Positions 7,828 to 21,667 of a stretch of DNA of 29,234 bases are shown piece by piece. The translations under genes and the position numbers were made by a program. The stretch's first letter is position 1; every line of letters starts with the position of its first letter. The stretch comes from a virus (lineage: Duplodnaviria; Caudoviricetes). The notes below the pieces were generated by a model. The model was not told the origin of the DNA. It saw nothing but the letters and a program-made list of their open reading frames with translations, and did not search any database. The DNA lies in the IMG/VR virus record IMGVR_UViG_3300033076_001163, positions 1 to 29,234 of that record; one strand, written 5' to 3'.

Positions 7828-10385
7828 CCTTCCCGCGTGTCCTCAATAACATAGTCGGTCGCGAGGCCGCTTTCGTCCCGCGCTACCTTCAACCGGCGCT
7901 TAACTACCGGGGTAGGTAGTGTCACGTTAACGACCGGCGGCGCTGCTGGAGTGCTTGAGATCTGGCCGATCCTGGCGCCTTGCAATTCAAGCGACGCGCG
8001 AAGCTGTTCAAGTTGGTGCTCAGCTTGTAGGCGCTGCTCAGTCATTACCCGTTCTTTGATGTCCAGATCTGAGCGCACGGCGTCTAGTTGCTGCTGAGCG
8101 GCTCGCAGTTGCATTTCGTATTCCGCCACCCGGGCGTCTAGCATTTGCTGGAATTGCGTAGCATCACGCTCATCAGTGAGCTTCCTGAGTTGTAAGATCA
8201 GCTCGTCAGACCTAAGCTGTAACATCTGCTGTTGAGCTGCCATTTCCGATTTAAGCTTCTCATAGCCTAGCTGTAGCTCAGCCGATGCCTCTGCTGATTG
8301 CGATTGCACCTTATATGCTTCTAGCTGCTGTTGGATTTGAGCGGCGGCGGCGTCCTGATTCAGCTTAAACTGCTCAAGCTGTACCCTCATTGACTCCATG
8401 CCTTGAGCCTGATTGAGCTTGGCAACCTCTAGCCGCTCATCGCTTTGGATCTTGTACTGCTGAATCGCCTGCTGGATCTGCAATTCTTCGCGCTTCAATT
8501 GCGCGGCGGTTTCATCCTTATTGAATGGCGCTTCCGCTGTTTTCGCCGCTTCGATTACCTGATCGATCGCCGCGGTAATTTCGTTTTGGAACATCTTGCC
8601 CTGACGGAATCCTTGGATCAGGAATTTCAGGGCGTGCAGCTCAACTACCACCAATTTGGGCGAACTCTGGGCGATAGACGCCACCTTTTCAATGGCCGCC
8701 GTCATTGTGTTTACCAGCTCCAAACGGCGCGCCTTGTCATACTCTTCATTAAGCGCAATCGTTGAATCGGTTTCTAGCTCAATTCTAAAGCGCTTGGTTT
8801 TGCTCTTGAGCAGATCTAGCGCTGCCTGGTAGCGCGGCTGATGATCCGGCGGAAGGGTGCGGGGTAGTATGTACTGCTCTAAACTTGCGTCCTTGAAGTT
8901 GCGCAACGCCATCTGGCAGATGAGTTCGTAGGATGCCCGCACGAACTCTTGCATTTTCGCTTGTGCTTCGCTGATCTGATTGAGCGCGTATTTCTCTTGC
9001 AATTGGCGCTCGCCAAAGGTGCGATCGGTTTGATCTGTAACAAAACCCTGGAGCAGGTCGCTAGTCCCGGTCAGTTTGTAGCAAACATTGAGCCGCTGCT
9101 CTAAAGCGCCGTAAAGCTGATTGAGCCCGTTGATGAGCTGCTCGACCGGAATGAATTGCACTACAGCATCAAGCGTACCCCCGGCATTGGCGAGCGATTG
9201 CGCCAGATTCGGCACCCCGATCGCGTCAGCCTCAGAAAGCTCGTTAAGCGCCTCTTGCAATCCGTTCACGTTATTATCGAACAGCAAGCGCACGCGGATC
9301 GCTTTCGTCACAGACACCATGCGCGTAAAGATCTGATGAATGTCATCGATCAGATCTTCAAGCTGAGCGAATTCGGGAACGGGCCAGAAATCGTCAGTGG
9401 GTTTGTTCAGAACGAACGGGGGAGGGCAGGGAAAGAAGCTATCCAAGTCATAGGGGCCGCGCTTCTCTTTCAGATCTTCCGCGTAGTCCTCATCATCCTT
9501 GCCCGGGTACTCCTTGGGTTTGATGAAGCCCTGCCCCTCATCAGCGAACCAATAACACTCACCCTCATAGAGATCCCAATACTCCCAGACCTTGATTGCT
9601 GGCGCTTTTTTTGCCGACTCATCGGAATTTGACTTATCGTCACTATCGGATGGCAGAGTGGATAGAGCAGCGCGGCCGAATACCTCAGCGAATTGCCGTT
9701 CCGAATAGTGCTCACAAAACGCGATCCGCTTTACCCGCTCCCATCGGCGAACATCGGGATCGATCAAAATATCTTTGTATAGTACAGGCTCAAGGCAGAT
9801 CTTTTCGTTCTCAACGTCTATTAGCTCATCAGTTTCGATGAAATAGCCTTCATCATCCTGGCCAATTTCATCAGTGATAACCACGTTACCGAAGGAATCA
9901 TAAAACGCGATCTCGCCTGTTTCCTCATCCTGCTGGGGTGTGATTCGCTCCCGCACAGGCTCCCGCACCTCATCGCGCTCGTAGTAGGCGCGCACCTGGC
10001 CAAAGTTAGTTGCGATCCCGTCATCGCGCACTGCCGACATTACGTCAAAAAAGTCGAACGTCTTAGCGAGATTTATCGCCAGCCGCTCATAGCAAAGCGC
10101 CGCCGTGGCGCCGATATTGTCGGAGCCGTCCTGGGTTGTGTCCTTGCCGATTGGAATACCCACCCGCGAAAGGATAAGCGGCTGGCGTATTTTGAATATT
10201 GACCACCAAAGCGGATATTTTTGACGGCGGCGCGAGCTGTTCGGCGTGTTGGAAAATAGCCGCGTGTTTCTCTGCTTTCTCTTAATTTCGTTCCAGGATC
10301 GATCGGCTACGGTAAGCCAGTCCCGCCGCGCTTTTTTGGCATCTTCTATAAATGCCTTGGCTTCCTCAATTGTTAAGTTGGGCAT
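7824..10385 (-). CDS. Portal protein with long C-terminal coiled coil (P22-like barrel)
   Basis: About 853 aa directly after terL; KVWEYWD and FFPCPPP motifs; Gln/Glu-rich coiled-coil tail of about 200 aa. Start ATG 10385 or GTG 10394. Confidence 0.88.
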   Translation of the reverse strand: MPNLTIEEAKAFIEDAKKARRDWLTVADRSWNEIKRKQRNTRLFSNTPNSSRRRQKYPLWWSIFKIRQPLILSRVGIPIGKDTTQDGSDNIGATAALCYERLAINLAKTFDFFDVMSAVRDDGIATNFGQVRAYYERDEVREPVRERITPQQDEETGEIAFYDSFGNVVITDEIGQDDEGYFIETDELIDVENEKICLEPVLYKDILIDPDVRRWERVKRIAFCEHYSERQFAEVFGRAALSTLPSDSDDKSNSDESAKKAPAIKVWEYWDLYEGECYWFADEGQGFIKPKEYPGKDDEDYAEDLKEKRGPYDLDSFFPCPPPFVLNKPTDDFWPVPEFAQLEDLIDDIHQIFTRMVSVTKAIRVRLLFDNNVNGLQEALNELSEADAIGVPNLAQSLANAGGTLDAVVQFIPVEQLINGLNQLYGALEQRLNVCYKLTGTSDLLQGFVTDQTDRTFGERQLQEKYALNQISEAQAKMQEFVRASYELICQMALRNFKDASLEQYILPRTLPPDHQPRYQAALDLLKSKTKRFRIELETDSTIALNEEYDKARRLELVNTMTAAIEKVASIAQSSPKLVVVELHALKFLIQGFRQGKMFQNEITAAIDQVIEAAKTAEAPFNKDETAAQLKREELQIQQAIQQYKIQSDERLEVAKLNQAQGMESMRVQLEQFKLNQDAAAAQIQQQLEAYKVQSQSAEASAELQLGYEKLKSEMAAQQQMLQLRSDELILQLRKLTDERDATQFQQMLDARVAEYEMQLRAAQQQLDAVRSDLDIKERVMTEQRLQAEHQLEQLRASLELQGARIGQISSTPAAPPVVNVTLPTPVVKRRLKVARDESGLATDYVIEDTREG

Positions 10386-12192: not shown

Positions 12193-12546
12193 TTAAGCCC
12201 TCGCGCGCCCATATTCAACGCGGCGGCGCATGTTAGGCTTCCACCGCGTGGTCATATCAGGCAGCTTGTATTGTGATCTTATGCGGTTTCCCGTTGTAAC
12301 GGGGTCTGCAAAAATTGCGTAGCAGCACCAGCCGAAACTAAACGGCGGTTGGTTTTGATTGATCGGCGTATTGAAAAGCCAGCGCACCGCCTCAGCGTGA
12401 CCGGATGCGGCGTCATGAAGGGCGCGGAGAATTACCGCCTTTATTAACCGTTCTTCCGGGGTATCACCGGCCGCCCACTCACAAGCAACGGCCGGGATCA
12501 AAACCTGCATTGATCGCATGGGTATTTGGACGCTGGGGATTATCAA
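12193..12546 (-). CDS. Hypothetical phage protein, possible transcription regulator
   Basis: Helical motif EERLIKAVILRALHDA...AVRWLF...FSFGWCC; lies between HTH gene and terS; start uncertain (TTG 12546 or a later ATG). Confidence 0.65.
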   Translation of the reverse strand: MIIPSVQIPMRSMQVLIPAVACEWAAGDTPEERLIKAVILRALHDAASGHAEAVRWLFNTPINQNQPPFSFGWCCYAIFADPVTTGNRIRSQYKLPDMTTRWKPNMRRRVEYGRARA

Positions 12547-12833
12547 TCGATTCCCCGCGGGTTAATTGCGTCCTTTCGTTGATTGCGCTGGACGTTTTTC
12601 GCGTCCTTTCTGAATTCGCTCCAAAACCGTTCGAGGGTTTCCCCGCTAAGCTCGTAAAGCCGCTCCAGGCGAGCGGGTGCGTAGGATTTCCCCTCTGTTT
12701 CGAAGGTTTTGTAATGGGTGACCTGCATCCCCATTTCCTTCGCCATTCTTGTGACTGACCAGCCGCGTTTTGTTCTGACCCATTTTGGTAAGTGCATGTG
12801 TCTGATTTCGCGCGGGGGTAAATTTATGGCCAT
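12543..12833 (-). CDS. XRE/Cro-like helix-turn-helix regulator
   Basis: VRTKRGWSVTRMAKEMGMQVTHYKTFETEG fits the XRE HTH pattern; sits at the divergence point; no C-terminal S24 peptidase domain. Confidence 0.8.
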   Translation of the reverse strand: MAINLPPREIRHMHLPKWVRTKRGWSVTRMAKEMGMQVTHYKTFETEGKSYAPARLERLYELSGETLERFWSEFRKDAKNVQRNQRKDAINPRGID

Positions 12834-12842
12834 AGTTAATTT

Positions 12843-12895
12843 GATGCACTGTAAACCTTTACACTGGCATCGAACTACTATATGATGCAGTGCAT
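12843..12895 (+). promoter_or_regulatory. Rightward sigma70-type promoter overlapped by operator-like palindromes
   Basis: TTTACA (12858-12863)-17 bp-TATGAT (12881-12886); palindromes GATGC..TGTAAA-CC-TTTACA..GCATC (12843-12871) and ATGCA-G-TGCAT (12885-12895). Confidence 0.72.
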
Positions 12896-12932
12896 AGGAT
12901 GTAGTCTATAAGATTATTCGATAGGTTACAAT

Positions 12933-13235
12933 ATGAAGCGAGATCAATTCCAAAAATTAAGCCGCCTAGAGCAAGGCCAGTACCTACACTCTGAGCTCTG
13001 CCGCCTGGCCGAACTGCTCGAATCAATCGAGCTCGAGGAGGGCCAGACCACAGACTACGCCCGGCAGATCGCCGAATCGTGCGGATGGCGGTTTTGCGAC
13101 CACTGCAACGGCTTAACCGAAACGCGTGACGAGTGGGGGAACTGCGAGAAGTGCAGCGCTGAATCTGAGGCATGGGCCAAGGAGCGCCGCGAAATGGAGA
13201 AAGATTATTTTTATAACGTAATTGGAGGAAAATAG
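12933..13235 (+). CDS. Hypothetical protein with CxxC..CxxC zinc-binding motif
   Basis: 100 aa; CDHC and CEKC pairs; first gene of the rightward operon. Confidence 0.75.
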   Translation: MKRDQFQKLSRLEQGQYLHSELCRLAELLESIELEEGQTTDYARQIAESCGWRFCDHCNGLTETRDEWGNCEKCSAESEAWAKERREMEKDYFYNVIGGK

Positions 13236-14500: not shown

Positions 14501-15367
14501 ATGAGCACCACGATCTCGCTTTACTGCGCAAACAAGGCGCCAGCGACCCAAAAAACATATCTACAAGTGTGGCATGAGTGGATCGAGCACTGTCCCGATC
14601 CGCTCACTGCCACCGCTAAACATGCAGCCGCATATTTAAGCGGCTTAAATTGCGCGGACAATACCCGCCGAAAAAAGCTCAACATTCTACGCACGCTGTA
14701 CGGCGTGCTCCTTGATATGGGCGAAGCGCCCGCGAATATTTTCGCCCAGGTTGCGCGATTCTTGAGCGCCCGCAAAGCTCAGCAAGTCAGACCCACCCAA
14801 AGGCTCAGCGCTCGCGATGTGCGGCGCCTGCTCAAGGTCAAAGCGGGCAGGCCGTGGAATACCGTGAGAGATCGGGCGATTTTCGCGATCATGTTCGGGT
14901 GCGGGCTGCGGCGATCTGAAGTAGTGCGGCTCAATTGCGATGATGTGCGCGTGTCGGTTGAGGGCTGCCGATATTTGCGGTTAGTCGATACCAAAGCCGG
15001 AATCGAGCAGGAGCAGCCCGTGCCGATCTGGGTATGGCGCCACCTATCAAAGCTAATCACGGAGCGGGCAGGGCAGGGGGCGAAGGACGGCGATCCGCTT
15101 TTTTGTTCGTTCGGCAATTTACATCACCGCATGACCACATCGGCACTATGGAAACTGTGGAAGTTGTACGCCAAGCGCCTTGAGCTCGATCCTCGTGTGA
15201 GCTGCCACGCAGCGCGGGCCACGTTTGCAACCGCCCTGCTGGAAGCTGGCGCGGCATCGGATGAGGTGCAGCGAGCTCTAAGACACAAAAGCCCCGGCAT
15301 GGTGTCGGCATACGATAAGCGGCGCAAAGCGCTGGCGGATAATATTGCCTGGCGAATAAGATTTTAA
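14501..15367 (+). CDS. Tyrosine recombinase (integrase or Xer-like resolvase)
   Basis: Catalytic set R (GLRRSE), K (DTKAG), HxxR (HAAR), H (LRH), Y (AYD); 288 aa with no arm-binding domain. Confidence 0.93.
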   Translation: MSTTISLYCANKAPATQKTYLQVWHEWIEHCPDPLTATAKHAAAYLSGLNCADNTRRKKLNILRTLYGVLLDMGEAPANIFAQVARFLSARKAQQVRPTQRLSARDVRRLLKVKAGRPWNTVRDRAIFAIMFGCGLRRSEVVRLNCDDVRVSVEGCRYLRLVDTKAGIEQEQPVPIWVWRHLSKLITERAGQGAKDGDPLFCSFGNLHHRMTTSALWKLWKLYAKRLELDPRVSCHAARATFATALLEAGAASDEVQRALRHKSPGMVSAYDKRRKALADNIAWRIRF

Positions 15368-15468
15368 TCTGATATAGAGATTCCGAGTCCGTTGTTCCAT
15401 CGAAAGATGGGTGCAGCGAAACTAGTTAAGACCTGTCCATGCCGACCAAAGCTGAGACAGGTTTTTTT
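15366..15468 (+). ncRNA. Candidate small structured RNA or structured 3' UTR
   Basis: Three successive hairpins: AATCT/AGATT, CGTTGTTCCATC-GAAA-GATGGGTGCAGCG (G-U pairs favour plus strand), then the terminator stem. Confidence 0.35.
15431..15468 (+). terminator. Rho-independent terminator after recombinase gene
   Basis: ACCTGTC-18 nt-GACAGGT running into a T7 tract. Confidence 0.65.
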
Positions 15469-15563
15469 ATTTCTGCATAACCCCCTAACCCCACTACATT
15501 AAATCTTTCACTTTTTGCGTCTTTTTTTGTTGCGCGCGCATCTCATCTGTATTACAAAGGTAA

Positions 15564-15856
15564 CACATTAGGGAGATGGTTATGAACTTATGGAATTGCA
15601 AAGAATGGCAGCAAGTAACCGGAGAATATTTCGGCGTGTCCTATGTTGGAACGGTTAGAAAAACCGAATCGAGCGATATTATGGTTCACGTTTACATTAA
15701 TTTGGAATCGCCGATTGTGGTGTTCGGCGATGTAAGACGATCAATCGTAATCTCTGGAAGCGCCGTAAAGGGCTCGCCGTTTGAAGGCCGCACAATTAAA
15801 GCATTATAGATAAACAAAGCCCCCGAGAGGGGGCATATTAGATGGATGGTTATGAA
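15564..15856 (+). repeat. Start-associated direct repeat CAYATTAG-NNN-GATGGTTATGAA (2 copies)
   Basis: 15564-15586 and 15834-15856, 19/23 identical, 270 bp apart. Confidence 0.75.
15576..15809 (+). CDS. Small hypothetical protein (beta-rich)
   Basis: SD GGGAG; ATG 15576 or 15582; shares start-region repeat with next gene. Confidence 0.72.
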   Translation: MVMNLWNCKEWQQVTGEYFGVSYVGTVRKTESSDIMVHVYINLESPIVVFGDVRRSIVISGSAVKGSPFEGRTIKAL

Positions 15857-16079
15857 TAAATACACTTACAACGGCAAACAAATTACACTAACGCAGCAAG
15901 CATATCTAACTGGGAAGTACGGCAACGCCGTATATAAGGCCGCCGCAGTCGATGACGACGGCAATGAGTACATGGTTATCTGGCACCCCTACGACCGCTC
16001 CGGCAAGGGATGCGAGGATGAGAGCGATGCCTGTAACTGGGATACTCCGGCCGAGATTAAGCTGACAGCGGAGGTGTAG
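15846..16079 (+). CDS. Small acidic hypothetical phage protein
   Basis: 77 aa; YKAAAVDDDGNEYMVIW...DESDACNWD motif. Confidence 0.78.
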   Translation: MVMNKYTYNGKQITLTQQAYLTGKYGNAVYKAAAVDDDGNEYMVIWHPYDRSGKGCEDESDACNWDTPAEIKLTAEV

Positions 16080-16145
16080 AGAGTTCGGCCATCCCTGTGG
16101 GGGTGGCTCACTCTCGGCAATTTCGCCGAGGTTTTCGGGGGTTTT

Positions 16146-16527: not shown

Positions 16528-16572
16528 GTGCTTTTATTAGGTTTTGGGGGGATCGCTTATGGATAATTATGT

Positions 16573-16728
16573 ATGGCAACAGATAAAGAAAACCCTGAGA
16601 CCTTTAGGGCATCAAGGCATGTGCGAAAGCTACTTGCTGAGCTCGTCAAGAAGTATGGGGAAAACAAAAGCCGTATTATTTGCCGGGCCATTGAAGAGCT
16701 GCACAGGAAGATTTTCGAGCCTAAATAG
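16573..16728 (+). CDS. Ribbon-helix-helix (CopG/Arc-like) DNA-binding protein (51 aa)
   Basis: Not in track. MATDKENPETFRASRHVRKLLAELVKKYGENKSRIICRAIEELHRKIFEPK: beta strand, helix ending in G, then NKSRII..AI helix typical of RHH. Confidence 0.78.
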   Translation: MATDKENPETFRASRHVRKLLAELVKKYGENKSRIICRAIEELHRKIFEPK

Positions 16729-16780
16729 CGTTTTTTATATTGCCGCCCAAACGCGGCGGGTGTAGAGGAAAAGAACAATA

Positions 16781-16924
16781 ATGCCGCTCGGCTGTTTTTT
16801 TTCTGCCCCTCGCTAGTTCACCAGAACTAACTAACGGCGGAAGAGACAGACGGAAAAAAGTGAAGCGCCTTGAGTGATAAGCTCTAAGGCGCTCCTAGCG
16901 GCATGAATCTTCGAGGGATTCATG
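16781..16924 (+). promoter_or_regulatory. Structured RNA leader (multi-stem) sequestering the next gene's RBS and start codon
   Basis: Outer stem ATGCCGCT/AGCGGCAT closing two long hairpins; overlapping hairpin CATGAATC..GATTCATG covers GAGGG and ATG 16922. Confidence 0.65.
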
Positions 16925-17116
16925 AACCGATACAATTCACTTAACACAATCATTCGCGCTCGTCACTGGAGAGATCCGCACGGCGAGCTAGTTCACGCAC
17001 AAAAGATTGAGGCGATCTGGCCTTGGATCAAGGGCGCGATCCTGCTGGCGCTGTTTATGCTCAGCGCTGGCGTGGTCATGGCTGTATTTGCTGCGGTTTG
17101 GGGGCTGGTAGCATGA
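16922..17116 (+). CDS. Small membrane protein translationally coupled to the replication gene
   Basis: 64 aa, SD GAGGG, hydrophobic C-terminal half; TGA overlaps initiator ATG (ATGA 17113-17116). Confidence 0.7.
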   Translation: MNRYNSLNTIIRARHWRDPHGELVHAQKIEAIWPWIKGAILLALFMLSAGVVMAVFAAVWGLVA

Positions 17117-18012
17117 GCACCTGGTTTCGCCACGATTGCGATGCACACGCAGATCCCAAGCTGGCCACCGTGCTGGCCGAAAAGGGCGCTGAGGGTTACG
17201 GCGTTTACTTTCTGCTGATCGAAGCGCTGGCGCGAGAAAGCTCGCACGAGCTGAAGGTGTCGATATTGCCGGGGCTGGCGCTCAAGTGGGGGCAGAAGGC
17301 CGATACCTTGAAAGCCTATATCGAGTACTTCACCTCGCTTGATCTGCTAATTTCCGACGGCGTTGTATTTTATTCGGCATCGCTCAAAACAAGGATGCAG
17401 CAGATTGACGCAAAACGGAGCGTTACGCGCGACCGTGTAACGCGTTACAGGAGCGTTACAGATCCAAGTGTAACGCCGCCCCAGAGCGTTACACAAAAAA
17501 GTGTAACGCCTGAGCCTCAGCGTTACACCTCTAATCTAATCTATTCTAATCAGATCAAATCTAATCAAATCAAATCTGAGAGCGTTACACCGAAGCCTGT
17601 AACGCCCGAGCCGCCGCCCGACCCCTACGCAGTCTACCGCAAGCACGTCGATAAGGTTTTGAAGGTGCCCGGCGATCCGCCTGAGCCCTGGGAAAGTCAC
17701 AACCTGTACATCGGATCTGGCAAACGTCCGTGTCGGAACGCTGAGCATGTTTGGTTAACGCCGCAACAGCTTGTGGAGCTTTGGAAGCTTTACGACGACA
17801 CCGCAGGCCGCGATCAATCGATCCCGCTGTTCTACGACGCGTTAAAGAACACGCAGGCCGCAGCGCAAGCCCACATCGACCAAGGCAGGCCGATCGAGAG
17901 CTTCAAAGCCTACAACCACCTATCAAGCTGGAAACTGCAAGACGCGGCAAACACGCGGGCGGCAGTTGCTCGCATGACTCGAAACATCGCTAAGGAGCTT
18001 AGCCACCCATGA
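17113..18012 (+). CDS. Phage replication initiator (DUF4373/Lin1244-like N-terminal domain)
   Basis: MSTWFRHDCDAHADPKL...GAEGYGVYFLLIEAL; low-complexity linker encoded by iterons, as in lambdoid O genes. ATG 17113 preferred over track start 17023. Confidence 0.82.
   Translation: MSTWFRHDCDAHADPKLATVLAEKGAEGYGVYFLLIEALARESSHELKVSILPGLALKWGQKADTLKAYIEYFTSLDLLISDGVVFYSASLKTRMQQIDAKRSVTRDRVTRYRSVTDPSVTPPQSVTQKSVTPEPQRYTSNLIYSNQIKSNQIKSESVTPKPVTPEPPPDPYAVYRKHVDKVLKVPGDPPEPWESHNLYIGSGKRPCRNAEHVWLTPQQLVELWKLYDDTAGRDQSIPLFYDALKNTQAAAQAHIDQGRPIESFKAYNHLSSWKLQDAANTRAAVARMTRNIAKELSHP
17420..17605. repeat. Replication origin: iterons GCGTTAC-N10-GTAACGC plus AT-rich pentamer tract
   Basis: Full copies start at 17420, 17453, 17486 and 17582; half sites at 17442 and 17520; TCTAA/TCAAA-like repeats 17530-17577. 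Confidence 0.88.
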
Positions 18013-18655: not shown

Positions 18656-19407
18656 AGCCGTATTTTGAGGAGGCTGGCACAACGATTTACCACGGCGATT
18701 GCCGCGAGATCCTTATTGCGTTGCCCGATGAATCAATTGACTGCATTTGGACCGATCCGCCCTACGGACACAAGAATGCCGACGGTGACTTTCTTTCTAA
18801 ACGTTCAGAAATTATGGGCGACGGCATCGGCACAACTCAAAGCCCGATCGCAAATGATGACCAAGAGTCAATGCGTGCTGTAGTAGATTATATGTTGACT
18901 CAGGCCGCCCGCTTGCTACGGCGCGATTCTTGCTGCTGCTGCTGCTGCGGCGGCGGCGGGCCATCGCCCACATTTGCCTGGCTCGCACAACGAATGGATG
19001 AGGGCGGTCTTAGTTTTTTCCATAGCGTGATTTGGGATAAGAAAAACCCCGGCATCGGCTGGCGATTCAGGCGACAGCACGAAATGATCATGGTGGCACA
19101 CCGCAGCAGCGGCTCCCTGCGGTGGAATGACGAGATCGGAGCGCTTAGGAACGTTCTGTCGGAGCCAGCACCAACCGATCGCGTACATCCAAACGAAAAG
19201 CCTTTGGCGTTGGTAGCGCGATTCCTGGCGCACATGACAATGCCCGGCGATACAATCCTAGACCCCTTCATGGGCAGCGGCACAACCCTAGTCGCTGCGA
19301 AGAATCTCAACCGCAAAGCAATCGGAATCGAGCTAAGCGAAAAATACTGCGAGATCGCAGCCAAGCGATTGAGCCAACAGGTTATGAATTTCGAGGGATC
19401 AAAATGA
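18652..19407 (+). CDS. Orphan beta-class N6-adenine/N4-cytosine DNA methyltransferase
   Basis: DPPY (motif IV) before HPNEKP and DPFMGSGTT (motif I); no adjacent restriction gene. Confidence 0.94.
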   Translation: MKPYFEEAGTTIYHGDCREILIALPDESIDCIWTDPPYGHKNADGDFLSKRSEIMGDGIGTTQSPIANDDQESMRAVVDYMLTQAARLLRRDSCCCCCCGGGGPSPTFAWLAQRMDEGGLSFFHSVIWDKKNPGIGWRFRRQHEMIMVAHRSSGSLRWNDEIGALRNVLSEPAPTDRVHPNEKPLALVARFLAHMTMPGDTILDPFMGSGTTLVAAKNLNRKAIGIELSEKYCEIAAKRLSQQVMNFEGSK

Positions 19408-20796: not shown

Positions 20797-21110
20797 AACC
20801 CCCACAATTTCTACGAAACGCCGTAGCCACCGCACGTTGGCTCGATCTATCGATCAAAGAACAGAAAGATTTTATCTTTTTAGCTCAAATACAACAAAGT
20901 ATCGAAGCAACATGGCAGCGCAAGCGAGGTAAGCGGAACTGGTACGACTTCGCATTAAGCCAGATCGCAACCAAGCGCATAGAGATCGATTTGTACGCAA
21001 TGCCCGGCGATCCCGTTCTAAATGAACCGCCGAAACTTACATACTCTGTGCAGTATGGATATTTGCCAACAATGGCCGTTGTGGTTCCTAGTTTAGGGGG
21101 CAAGCTTTGA
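20793..21110 (+). CDS. Hypothetical protein
   Basis: 105 aa; TTG start in TTGA overlap, SD GAGGA. Confidence 0.62.
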   Translation: MKPPQFLRNAVATARWLDLSIKEQKDFIFLAQIQQSIEATWQRKRGKRNWYDFALSQIATKRIEIDLYAMPGDPVLNEPPKLTYSVQYGYLPTMAVVVPSLGGKL

Positions 21111-21667
21111 AACCCCTCACCATAACCATCAACCCCCTACCGCGAATCGTTCGGATCGATCTGCGCGGCGATCTGTCGGCTCTGCCGAGCGTGACGAATC
21201 GGCGCATCATTTGCCGGGGGCGATTGATTAAGGAGCCAAAAGCGCAGCAGGCGATTCACGATCTGACCTGGCTCTTTAAGCAAGAATCAAACCTGATCGC
21301 GCCCCTAGTACGATTCGGCGCTGAGCCCGTGCACGTTATCGCAATCCTGGGCGAGCGGTACGATCGGCTAGGGCGCAGGCGATCGCGGTGGGATTCTCAC
21401 AACATGGCGAAAGTCATCGGCGATTGGCTGCAAATGATCGAGGTTATCGACGATGATCAGCGCGCTGAGATTATGTGCGTTAAGCGGATCGATTATTTTG
21501 GGGACGATCAACTCCTGACATCGATCATTATTCAACCCAAAAAACGGGTTGCAAATTGCCTTGGAGCGTTCGTCCATCATGTTAACGAGCAGAGTTTAAC
21601 AGTGGCGATGACGGACAAAGATCTGCCCGTTGATCTGATGGCGCCCCAAGGCAAGTTATCTAATTAA
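21107..21667 (+). CDS. RusA-like Holliday junction resolvase (divergent)
   Basis: LPSVTN N-terminal motif and RWDSHNMAKVIGDWLQ...IDDD matching the RusA RxDxDNxxKxxxDxL..DD pattern. Confidence 0.72.
   Translation: MKPLTITINPLPRIVRIDLRGDLSALPSVTNRRIICRGRLIKEPKAQQAIHDLTWLFKQESNLIAPLVRFGAEPVHVIAILGERYDRLGRRRSRWDSHNMAKVIGDWLQMIEVIDDDQRAEIMCVKRIDYFGDDQLLTSIIIQPKKRVANCLGAFVHHVNEQSLTVAMTDKDLPVDLMAPQGKLSN

Follow-up and report, generated by a model that had tools for sequence, protein, structure and literature searches.

A conserved structured leader and a predicted antisense RNA upstream of the replication initiator of an uncultured tailed phage

Ahead of the replication initiator of an uncultured tailed phage lies a structured leader whose shape and gene neighborhood recur in a distant relative, and whose opposite strand carries the signature of an intrinsic terminator. 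The sequence studied is the whole contig of 29,234 nt (hereafter the window). On balance, we favor a model in which the conserved leader acts together with an opposite-strand antisense RNA of about 75–80 nt, which covers the ribosome-binding site and start of a 64-codon ORF (ORF64) and likely dampens the operon that holds the initiator. Gene order, leader fold, minus-strand terminator signature and a promoter-like site in the distant relative L132 are established by sequence and computation. The minus-strand terminator is the strongest signal at the locus; it was absent from an earlier note on this DNA, which had proposed an RNA-gated, plasmid-style replication control. Judged from its sequence, the leader appears to be a real, conserved RNA control element outside the Rfam catalogue, and RNA control of the ribosome site of the leader ORF is likely.

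The phage contig, its relatives and the gene order

Profile searches with the 42 ORFs of the window identified a major head protein, a portal, a terminase, a Gp157-family protein, a tyrosine recombinase, a DNA methylase and the initiator. No terminal repeat is present in the 29,234 nt. The recombinase (288 aa; 14501–15367, plus strand) is Xer-like, i.e. an integrase or resolvase. An XRE-type HTH regulator (12543–12833, minus strand) is oriented divergently from the early operon and heads the packaging operon; between this gene and the early operon, strong sigma-70-like promoters (12.6 and 9.7 bits) are arranged back to back at 12833–12933, and L132 has them too.

L132, a contig of 10.5 kb, was recovered through the recombinase and is the only syntenic locus that emerged from scans of viral, metagenome and genome sequences. 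Its genes follow the order HTH regulator, ORF100, ORF239, Gp157, recombinase, lipoprotein-like ORF, small membrane ORF, RHH gene, leader, membrane ORF and initiator; it differs from the window by an additional 68-aa ORF between leader ORF and initiator. The check for synteny in relatives that the earlier note had proposed thus came out positive for gene order and leader shape, in this single relative. CheckV assigns L132 a completeness of 28%, which suggests a phage genome near 37 kb; hence, the window is probably a fragment. Closer relatives come from contigs of the runs X2 and X3 of one other study, short pieces approximately 88–98% alike to the window, in which one leader hairpin (P2, see below) is retained nearly invariant and the remainder of the leader is swapped. 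The leaders compared are accordingly two full-length ones (window and L132) and two partial, near-identical ones (X2 and X3). X1, which may be the sample that the window comes from, was left out of the relative counts; its contigs end at a trinucleotide run within the DNA methylase gene (18923–18965, encoding six Cys and then five Gly), which may hence mark a weak spot of the assembly or a tract that varies. Another candidate, L053, was ruled out as a relative by its integrative-element layout.

Two further sites upstream of the RHH gene were noticed. Positions 15368–16079, 3' of the recombinase and its terminator (15432–15468), form a variable slot, occupied by two 77-aa ORFs in the window and by one different, Cys-rich 79-aa ORF in L132. 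Directly 5' of the lipoprotein-like ORF lies a second conserved structured element (window 16079–16145; L132 8742–8805), a long hairpin whose inner stem displays four double changes. It shares bases with a mutually exclusive terminator-like hairpin that is followed by U's and an SD, and it looks like a terminator/antiterminator switch.

The RHH-family gene (16573–16728, plus strand) encodes a small putative DNA-binding protein of 51 aa. That such a gene is present had already been claimed, and the claim is substantiated by the protein family, by the homolog in L132 (58 aa, 41–46% identical) and by the predicted fold. Taken alone, the protein of the window matched no RHH profile, and the assignment needed the relatives. 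A profile search gathered a family of 51 proteins, and the RHH_1 cut-off was passed by two of 41 scanned; the family profile matches CopG weakly (E 0.33), and the atlas neighbors of the L132 protein are Arc, RHH_1, RHH_3, NikA and HicB clusters at 0.93. The AlphaFold model based on 36 sequences (pLDDT 90.9) proposes an extended N-terminal segment followed by two helices; an earlier model from only 2 sequences was poor. The ORF differs from that of a close relative at 18 positions in all, and seven of the eight listed changes fall on third codon positions. No SD precedes the ATG; the gene is possibly leaderless, and promoter-like sites upstream of it are modest (5.9 and 6.1 bits), and no operator was identified. 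Just 5' of the gene, an SD-preceded ATG opens an overlapping ORF in another frame in both phages (window 16559–16765; L132 about 9225–9425). The changes in the close relative favor the RHH frame over this overlapping one.

ORF64 (64 aa; 16922–17116, plus strand) contains one predicted membrane helix. The leader ORF of L132 (60 aa) has the same membrane profile and no sequence similarity; since both proteins keep one membrane helix in unrelated sequences, the protein may matter in itself. As described previously, ORF64 overlaps the initiator gene by an ATGA (17113–17116).

The initiator (299 aa; 17113–18012, plus strand) belongs to the Lin1244 type of phage replication initiators (Pfam Lin1244_N, 2.4e-7; PHROG replication initiation protein, 7e-12), and its N-terminal domain matches initiators of tailed phages, e.g. 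LBR48 and EF62phi. An unrelated phage initiator (L081, 2513–3505) has only the C-terminal domain in common with it (28%, residues 171–291), a likeness that, from the sequences, would be a sign of domain shuffling. The repeats of the origin that had been suspected inside the initiator gene are indeed found there: the probable origin (17418–17605) consists of four 26-nt inverted-repeat units, three of them at 33-nt spacing, and an AT-rich run of pentamers (17530–17579). In the L132 initiator gene, the AT-rich run is the same and the repeats are different ones. The repeat motif is widespread, with 49 loci in IMG/VR, about 35 of which lie in initiator-like ORFs by eye (one confirmed by phmmer). 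On the minus strand at 17495–17528, the repeats form a second terminator-like hairpin with U6 inside the origin.

The label "plasmid-style" is not supported for this origin. Repeats and an AT-rich tract are located in the linker-coding part of the initiator gene, as in lambdoid internal origins; in the sections of the source available, the lambdoid norm is given as iterons accompanied by an AT-rich tract midway along the initiator gene, as in lambda O with ori-lambda (PMC7466680). The origin is an ordinary lambda-type one inside the initiator gene. Unlike lambda O, the initiator of the window has a Lin1244-type N-terminal domain and an unassigned C-terminal domain, and the repeat sequence is different.

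Leader fold, minus-strand terminator and predicted antisense RNA

The gap between the RHH gene and ORF64 amounts to 193 nt (16729–16921). The 144-nt multi-stem leader reported in the earlier note is present (16781–16924) and folds, taken as 16780–16926, with a z-score of -5.26 (0 of 200 shuffles); the L132 leader alone (9472–9606), mostly different in sequence, reaches -5.80 with the same junction and SD hairpin. Folded independently, both leaders show the same layout: the closing helix P1, then the long hairpin P2, an A-rich linker, hairpin P3 and, abutting it, hairpin P4. P1 (16781–16788 with 16897–16904) closes a three-way junction, P2 spans 16792–16853, and P4 (16902–16924) is predicted to cover the SD (16913–16917) and the ATG of ORF64, all on the plus strand. 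A further hairpin, P0 (16731–16769, plus strand), is located directly 3' of the RHH stop codon, with a counterpart at the matching place in L132. By eye, two of the eight P1 pairs are changed on both sides between window and L132, five are unchanged and one is mismatched in the window. P3 and P4 have little or no sequence in common between the two phages; the P2 apex (TTCACCAGAA, 16817–16826) and a run of six A's (A6) are identical. The apex region (window 16814–16829; L132 9501–9516) is invariant in every relative seen and single-copy. Possible roles are a loop bound by a protein or a palindrome in the DNA; a repeated operator was ruled out, as only one copy exists in each phage.

A covariance model built from the window alone retrieves the L132 leader as its best non-self match (E 5e-4, with 16 matches at E 5 or below in 39,756 bases). 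The leader structure model found no match among 93 other initiator-region loci, and 90 matches to a leader pattern were attributed to chance, except for the one in L132's own contig (the structure model matched one of 93 sources). MAFFT misregistered the two leaders structurally, and RNAalifold yields almost no consensus on that alignment (-1.35 kcal/mol). Searches with blastn found no match to the leader in phages or plasmids, and Rfam models (CopA, sar, C4, isrK and others; E up to 5 and 10) gave chance matches only, with E 1.9–3.7. Two other candidate features were rejected: a plus-strand terminator in the leader, and base pairing between the end of the RHH coding sequence and the SD hairpin as suggested by the L132 fold, which shuffles reach in 10% and 42% of cases.

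In both phages, the 3' strand of P1 doubles as the lower strand of the long form of P4, and P1 competes with the lower stem of the SD hairpin. The predicted cost of opening the ribosome-binding site is 6.7 kcal/mol with P1 and 12.5 kcal/mol without it in the window, and 5.7 versus 14.7 kcal/mol in L132. P1 accounts for about 32% of the predicted ensemble in the window and for only 0.7% in L132. The proposal that SD and ATG are locked in a hairpin is only partly retained: the long hairpin form, about 57% of the predicted ensemble, has the AUG base-paired, but the GA of the SD is part of the loop, and the alternative form with the closing helix (about 32%) leaves the AUG largely unpaired.

On the plus strand, A6 (16854–16859) lies 5' of P3; the minus strand therefore reads a hairpin followed by U6. 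The predicted intrinsic terminator (16854–16895, minus strand; hairpin 16895–16862, the sense P3) has a stability of -18.3 kcal/mol and tops the 26 terminator-like sites found at the window's 66 U5 tracts; that of L132 (-13.9) ranks second of eight among 23 U5 tracts. These ranks come from a custom, looser scan carried out after the folds had been inspected, and a stock terminator scanner lists the site in neither phage. None of 400 dinucleotide shuffles per leader reached -13, in the window or in L132. A comparable terminator within 500 nt upstream occurs in one of 60 other Lin1244-type loci (20 of the 80 loci were too short and were left out). Furthermore, P3 is better folded on the minus strand than on the plus strand (-19.8 versus -18.3 in the window; -16.2 versus -13.0 in L132), and its A.C mismatches on the plus strand of both phages pair as G.U on the minus strand. 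Elsewhere the strand bias is different: P0, with six G.U pairs, folds better on the plus strand, and P2 and P4 are mixed. X2 and X3 have kept A6; the eight pairs of their P3 stem that are visible in a 30-letter loose end comprise, by eye, four unchanged pairs, three double changes and one C.A on the plus strand, i.e. U.G on the minus strand. The minus-strand terminator signature is seen in three lineages.

The predicted antisense RNA (16853–16931, minus strand; 5' end taken from L132) would span the SD and start codon of ORF64. In both phages, the predicted RNAs (79 nt in the window, 75 nt in L132; z-scores -5.1 and -7.5) form two hairpins with the anti-SD in the first loop. A promoter-like site for the RNA in the window (16938–16966, minus strand) is weak: its score of 3.4 bits is reached by 15% of random slots and falls short of the median of the background (4.5). 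In L132, a promoter-like site of 8.9 bits (0.6% of random slots) lies at an almost equal offset within the first codons of the leader ORF and sets the start at the foot of the first antisense hairpin. The promoter weights are E. coli-like values and may not fit the host. In X3, positions 16861–16957 are replaced by 99 unlike letters between flanks that are each about 90% or more alike, and the swapped span coincides approximately with the predicted antisense RNA and its -10 region. Swapping is expected of specificity cassettes, as in plasmid incompatibility groups, and the replacement in X3 fits this pattern. Taking these sequence features together, an antisense RNA is probably made from the opposite strand of the leader.

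Proposed mechanism and alternative explanations

The control we propose would begin on the sense transcript, where P1 would draw the lower strand from the SD hairpin and half-open the ORF64 start (a predicted gain of 6–9 kcal/mol in both phages). The antisense RNA would start within the first ORF64 codons and display its anti-SD in the first loop; by invading the SD hairpin and the 3' strand of P1, it would stop ORF64 translation. The lost translation would then lower the amount of initiator, by coupling or polarity, and the RHH protein would repress the promoter of its own operon. The step from ORF64 to the initiator is the weakest one. Of 20 plus-strand junctions, 11 have a four-base overlap, and so do 10 of the 11 that begin with ORF64 (two starts were chosen by hand to fit an overlap), and the ATGA was rejected as a special coupling signal, since such overlaps are routine in this operon. 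Opening the initiator start is predicted to cost 13.3 kcal/mol, or 7.9 kcal/mol with ORF64 held unpaired; shuffled flanks match this start in 40–72% of cases, i.e. it is no more closed than expected by chance. In L132, the start of the 68-aa ORF that intervenes between leader ORF and initiator is open. Given the routine overlaps, the unremarkable initiator start and the extra ORF of L132, coupling is no more than a possible route. From the RNA gating of the initiator that had been suggested, synteny, the leader structure and a likely RNA control of the ORF64 ribosome site are supported, and translational coupling to the initiator is a conjecture. That the antisense RNA affects the initiator can be proposed tentatively; the effect could be exerted via polarity rather than coupling.

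What, then, if the RNA were directed at ORF64 itself? Type I toxin-antitoxin systems and kil-like small membrane toxins provide a model for an antisense RNA that silences a small, maybe toxic membrane protein and not the initiator. Both leader ORFs encode a strong hydrophobic helix despite their unrelated sequences, which a pure leader peptide would not need, and the ordinary overlap and initiator start just described are compatible with this idea. However, ORF64 matches no toxin family, lacks a terminator of its own and stands at the head of an operon whose overlapping genes begin with the initiator; we regard silencing of ORF64 for its own sake as quite unlikely.

Two further observations count against the antisense model: it leaves the P2 apex unexplained, and the late operon converges on the early operon without a terminator found at the junction, so that the minus-strand terminator could stop read-through. 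It is conceivable, though rather unlikely in our judgment, that the terminator merely catches such transcripts, or those of stray antisense promoters, where the early operon has its last free gap, and that the sense leader alone sets ORF64 translation. The late genes end overlapping the last early ORF at 21660–21667, where no terminator-like site is listed, there is almost no intergenic room between ORF64 and 21667, promoter-like minus-strand sites occur at 20869 and 21527, and the antisense promoter of the window is weak. Yet the terminator-like site at 17528–17495 would catch read-through earlier. Moreover, the good promoter of L132 sits exactly one hairpin upstream, the anti-SD occupies the loop of the first hairpin in both phages, and the segment swapped in X3 coincides with the predicted RNA span, all of which speaks against mere read-through control.

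The three-way junction also invites comparison with the processed same-strand immunity RNAs of the P4 CI and P1 c4 kind, which pair with flanking boxes. The layout of CI comprises a stalk, a major hairpin, a short A-rich linker and a minor hairpin, and the leader resembles it with its stalk, its major hairpin with invariant apex, its A-rich linker and its minor hairpin. By eye, the L132 linker can pair with the U-rich arm of P0 over 11 bp (two G.U), but that of the window over only 6 bp. A complement of apex or linker is conserved neither upstream nor downstream in a form shared by both phages, so target boxes of the CI/c4 type were rejected, and Rfam had no match at E up to 5 and 10. We consider a same-strand immunity RNA very unlikely.

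The earlier note further suggested that the phage may persist as a plasmid-like prophage, in which case RHH protein and antisense RNA would exert full plasmid-type copy control and keep the initiator low during lysogeny. The layout is like copG-RNAII-repB and copB-CopA-tap-repA, as far as the consulted parts of the sources describe them (PMC4485353, PMC5717011). The seven closest recombinases are found on contigs of at most 35 kb, none within a long host contig, and the recombinase is a short, Xer-like enzyme of the sort carried by many plasmid prophages; the available portion of the same source, however, does not treat tyrosine recombinases as diagnostic (PMC8026635). No partition gene was found among the 42 ORFs of the window or in L132, both incomplete contigs, and the origin is lambdoid in the sense of the available part of PMC7466680. 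The suggestion also overlaps with the antisense explanation and adds a claim on life style. A plasmid-like prophage is therefore unsupported by our analysis, and full copy control of this type appears unlikely. Its broadest version would be a family of uncultured tailed phages in which a lambda-type origin is subject to complete copy control in the manner of plasmids, with an RHH autorepressor, a leader acting as three-way-junction switch, an exchangeable antisense cassette defining incompatibility or immunity groups, an initiator throttled via a membrane leader protein, an unintegrated prophage, and the P2 apex as a further input. This, too, we hold to be improbable.

Comparison with known control systems

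If the preferred model, i.e. dampening of the initiator operon by leader and antisense RNA, is true, the few phage RNAs acting on replication genes are joined by a pair of leader and antisense RNA absent from the catalogue, and a plasmid-type control logic is set before a lambdoid origin. The mechanism class itself is classical (RNAII, CopA, sar, OOP). The cassette differs among phages otherwise about 90% alike and thus offers a ready test of RNA-based incompatibility or immunity. A literature search, which reached few subscription papers and no supplements (the latter could hold unlisted phage RNA motifs), found no description of the element.

In P22, sar follows the RHH gene arc in the order arc-sar-ant. 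Tap of plasmid R1 is a short peptide, and the R1 origin is located outside repA, in contrast to the origin of the window inside the initiator gene. A pseudoknot of the IncI1 repY-repZ type was rejected: a 5-nt complement of the P2 loop occurs at 17105 in the window, and none at the matching places in L132.

Structured RNAs ahead of a small ORF in an operon are known from P4 CI, P1 c4 and IsrK; according to the part of the source at hand, CI limits the P4 replication genes and IsrK of Gifsy-1 acts via a coupled small ORF (PMC4825925). These RNAs are encoded on the same strand and pair with separate boxes, which were not found in the window. Phage cis-antisense RNAs of a size similar to that predicted here are P22 sar and lambda OOP (68–77 nt); in the excerpts available, sar blocks translation initiation of ant, and OOP is made from pO in the lambda replication region (PMC12197685, PMC5415839). 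The control by sar is directed at an antirepressor and that by OOP at the 3' end of cII, and neither RNA spans the first start codon of a replication operon.

Among plasmids, the R1 locus copB-CopA-tap-repA combines a repressor gene, an antisense RNA spanning the intergenic stretch and a leader ORF before the initiator, in the accessible text of PMC5717011, and the window has the same sequence of elements with a predicted antisense RNA across the gap. The coupling of repA to tap is proven in R1, whereas coupling in the window would be hypothetical. pMV158 carries the RHH-type repressor gene copG, the opposite-strand RNAII ending in an intrinsic terminator, and then repB, as outlined in the portion of PMC4485353 consulted. 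The window likewise has a small RHH-type gene, a predicted opposite-strand RNA over the gap and then the initiator; a predicted intrinsic terminator on the opposite strand of the leader, as expected of a countertranscript, is found here. RNAII is a single hairpin of 48 nt that acts directly on repB of a rolling-circle plasmid. Unlike this RNA, the one predicted in the window comprises two hairpins and lies across a membrane ORF of 64 aa, and three additional helices occur in the sense leader; blastn found no sequence similarity to the leader in plasmids. By analogy of function, the locus would be most like copG-RNAII-repB of pMV158 and CopA-tap of R1, with sar and OOP as phage precedents.
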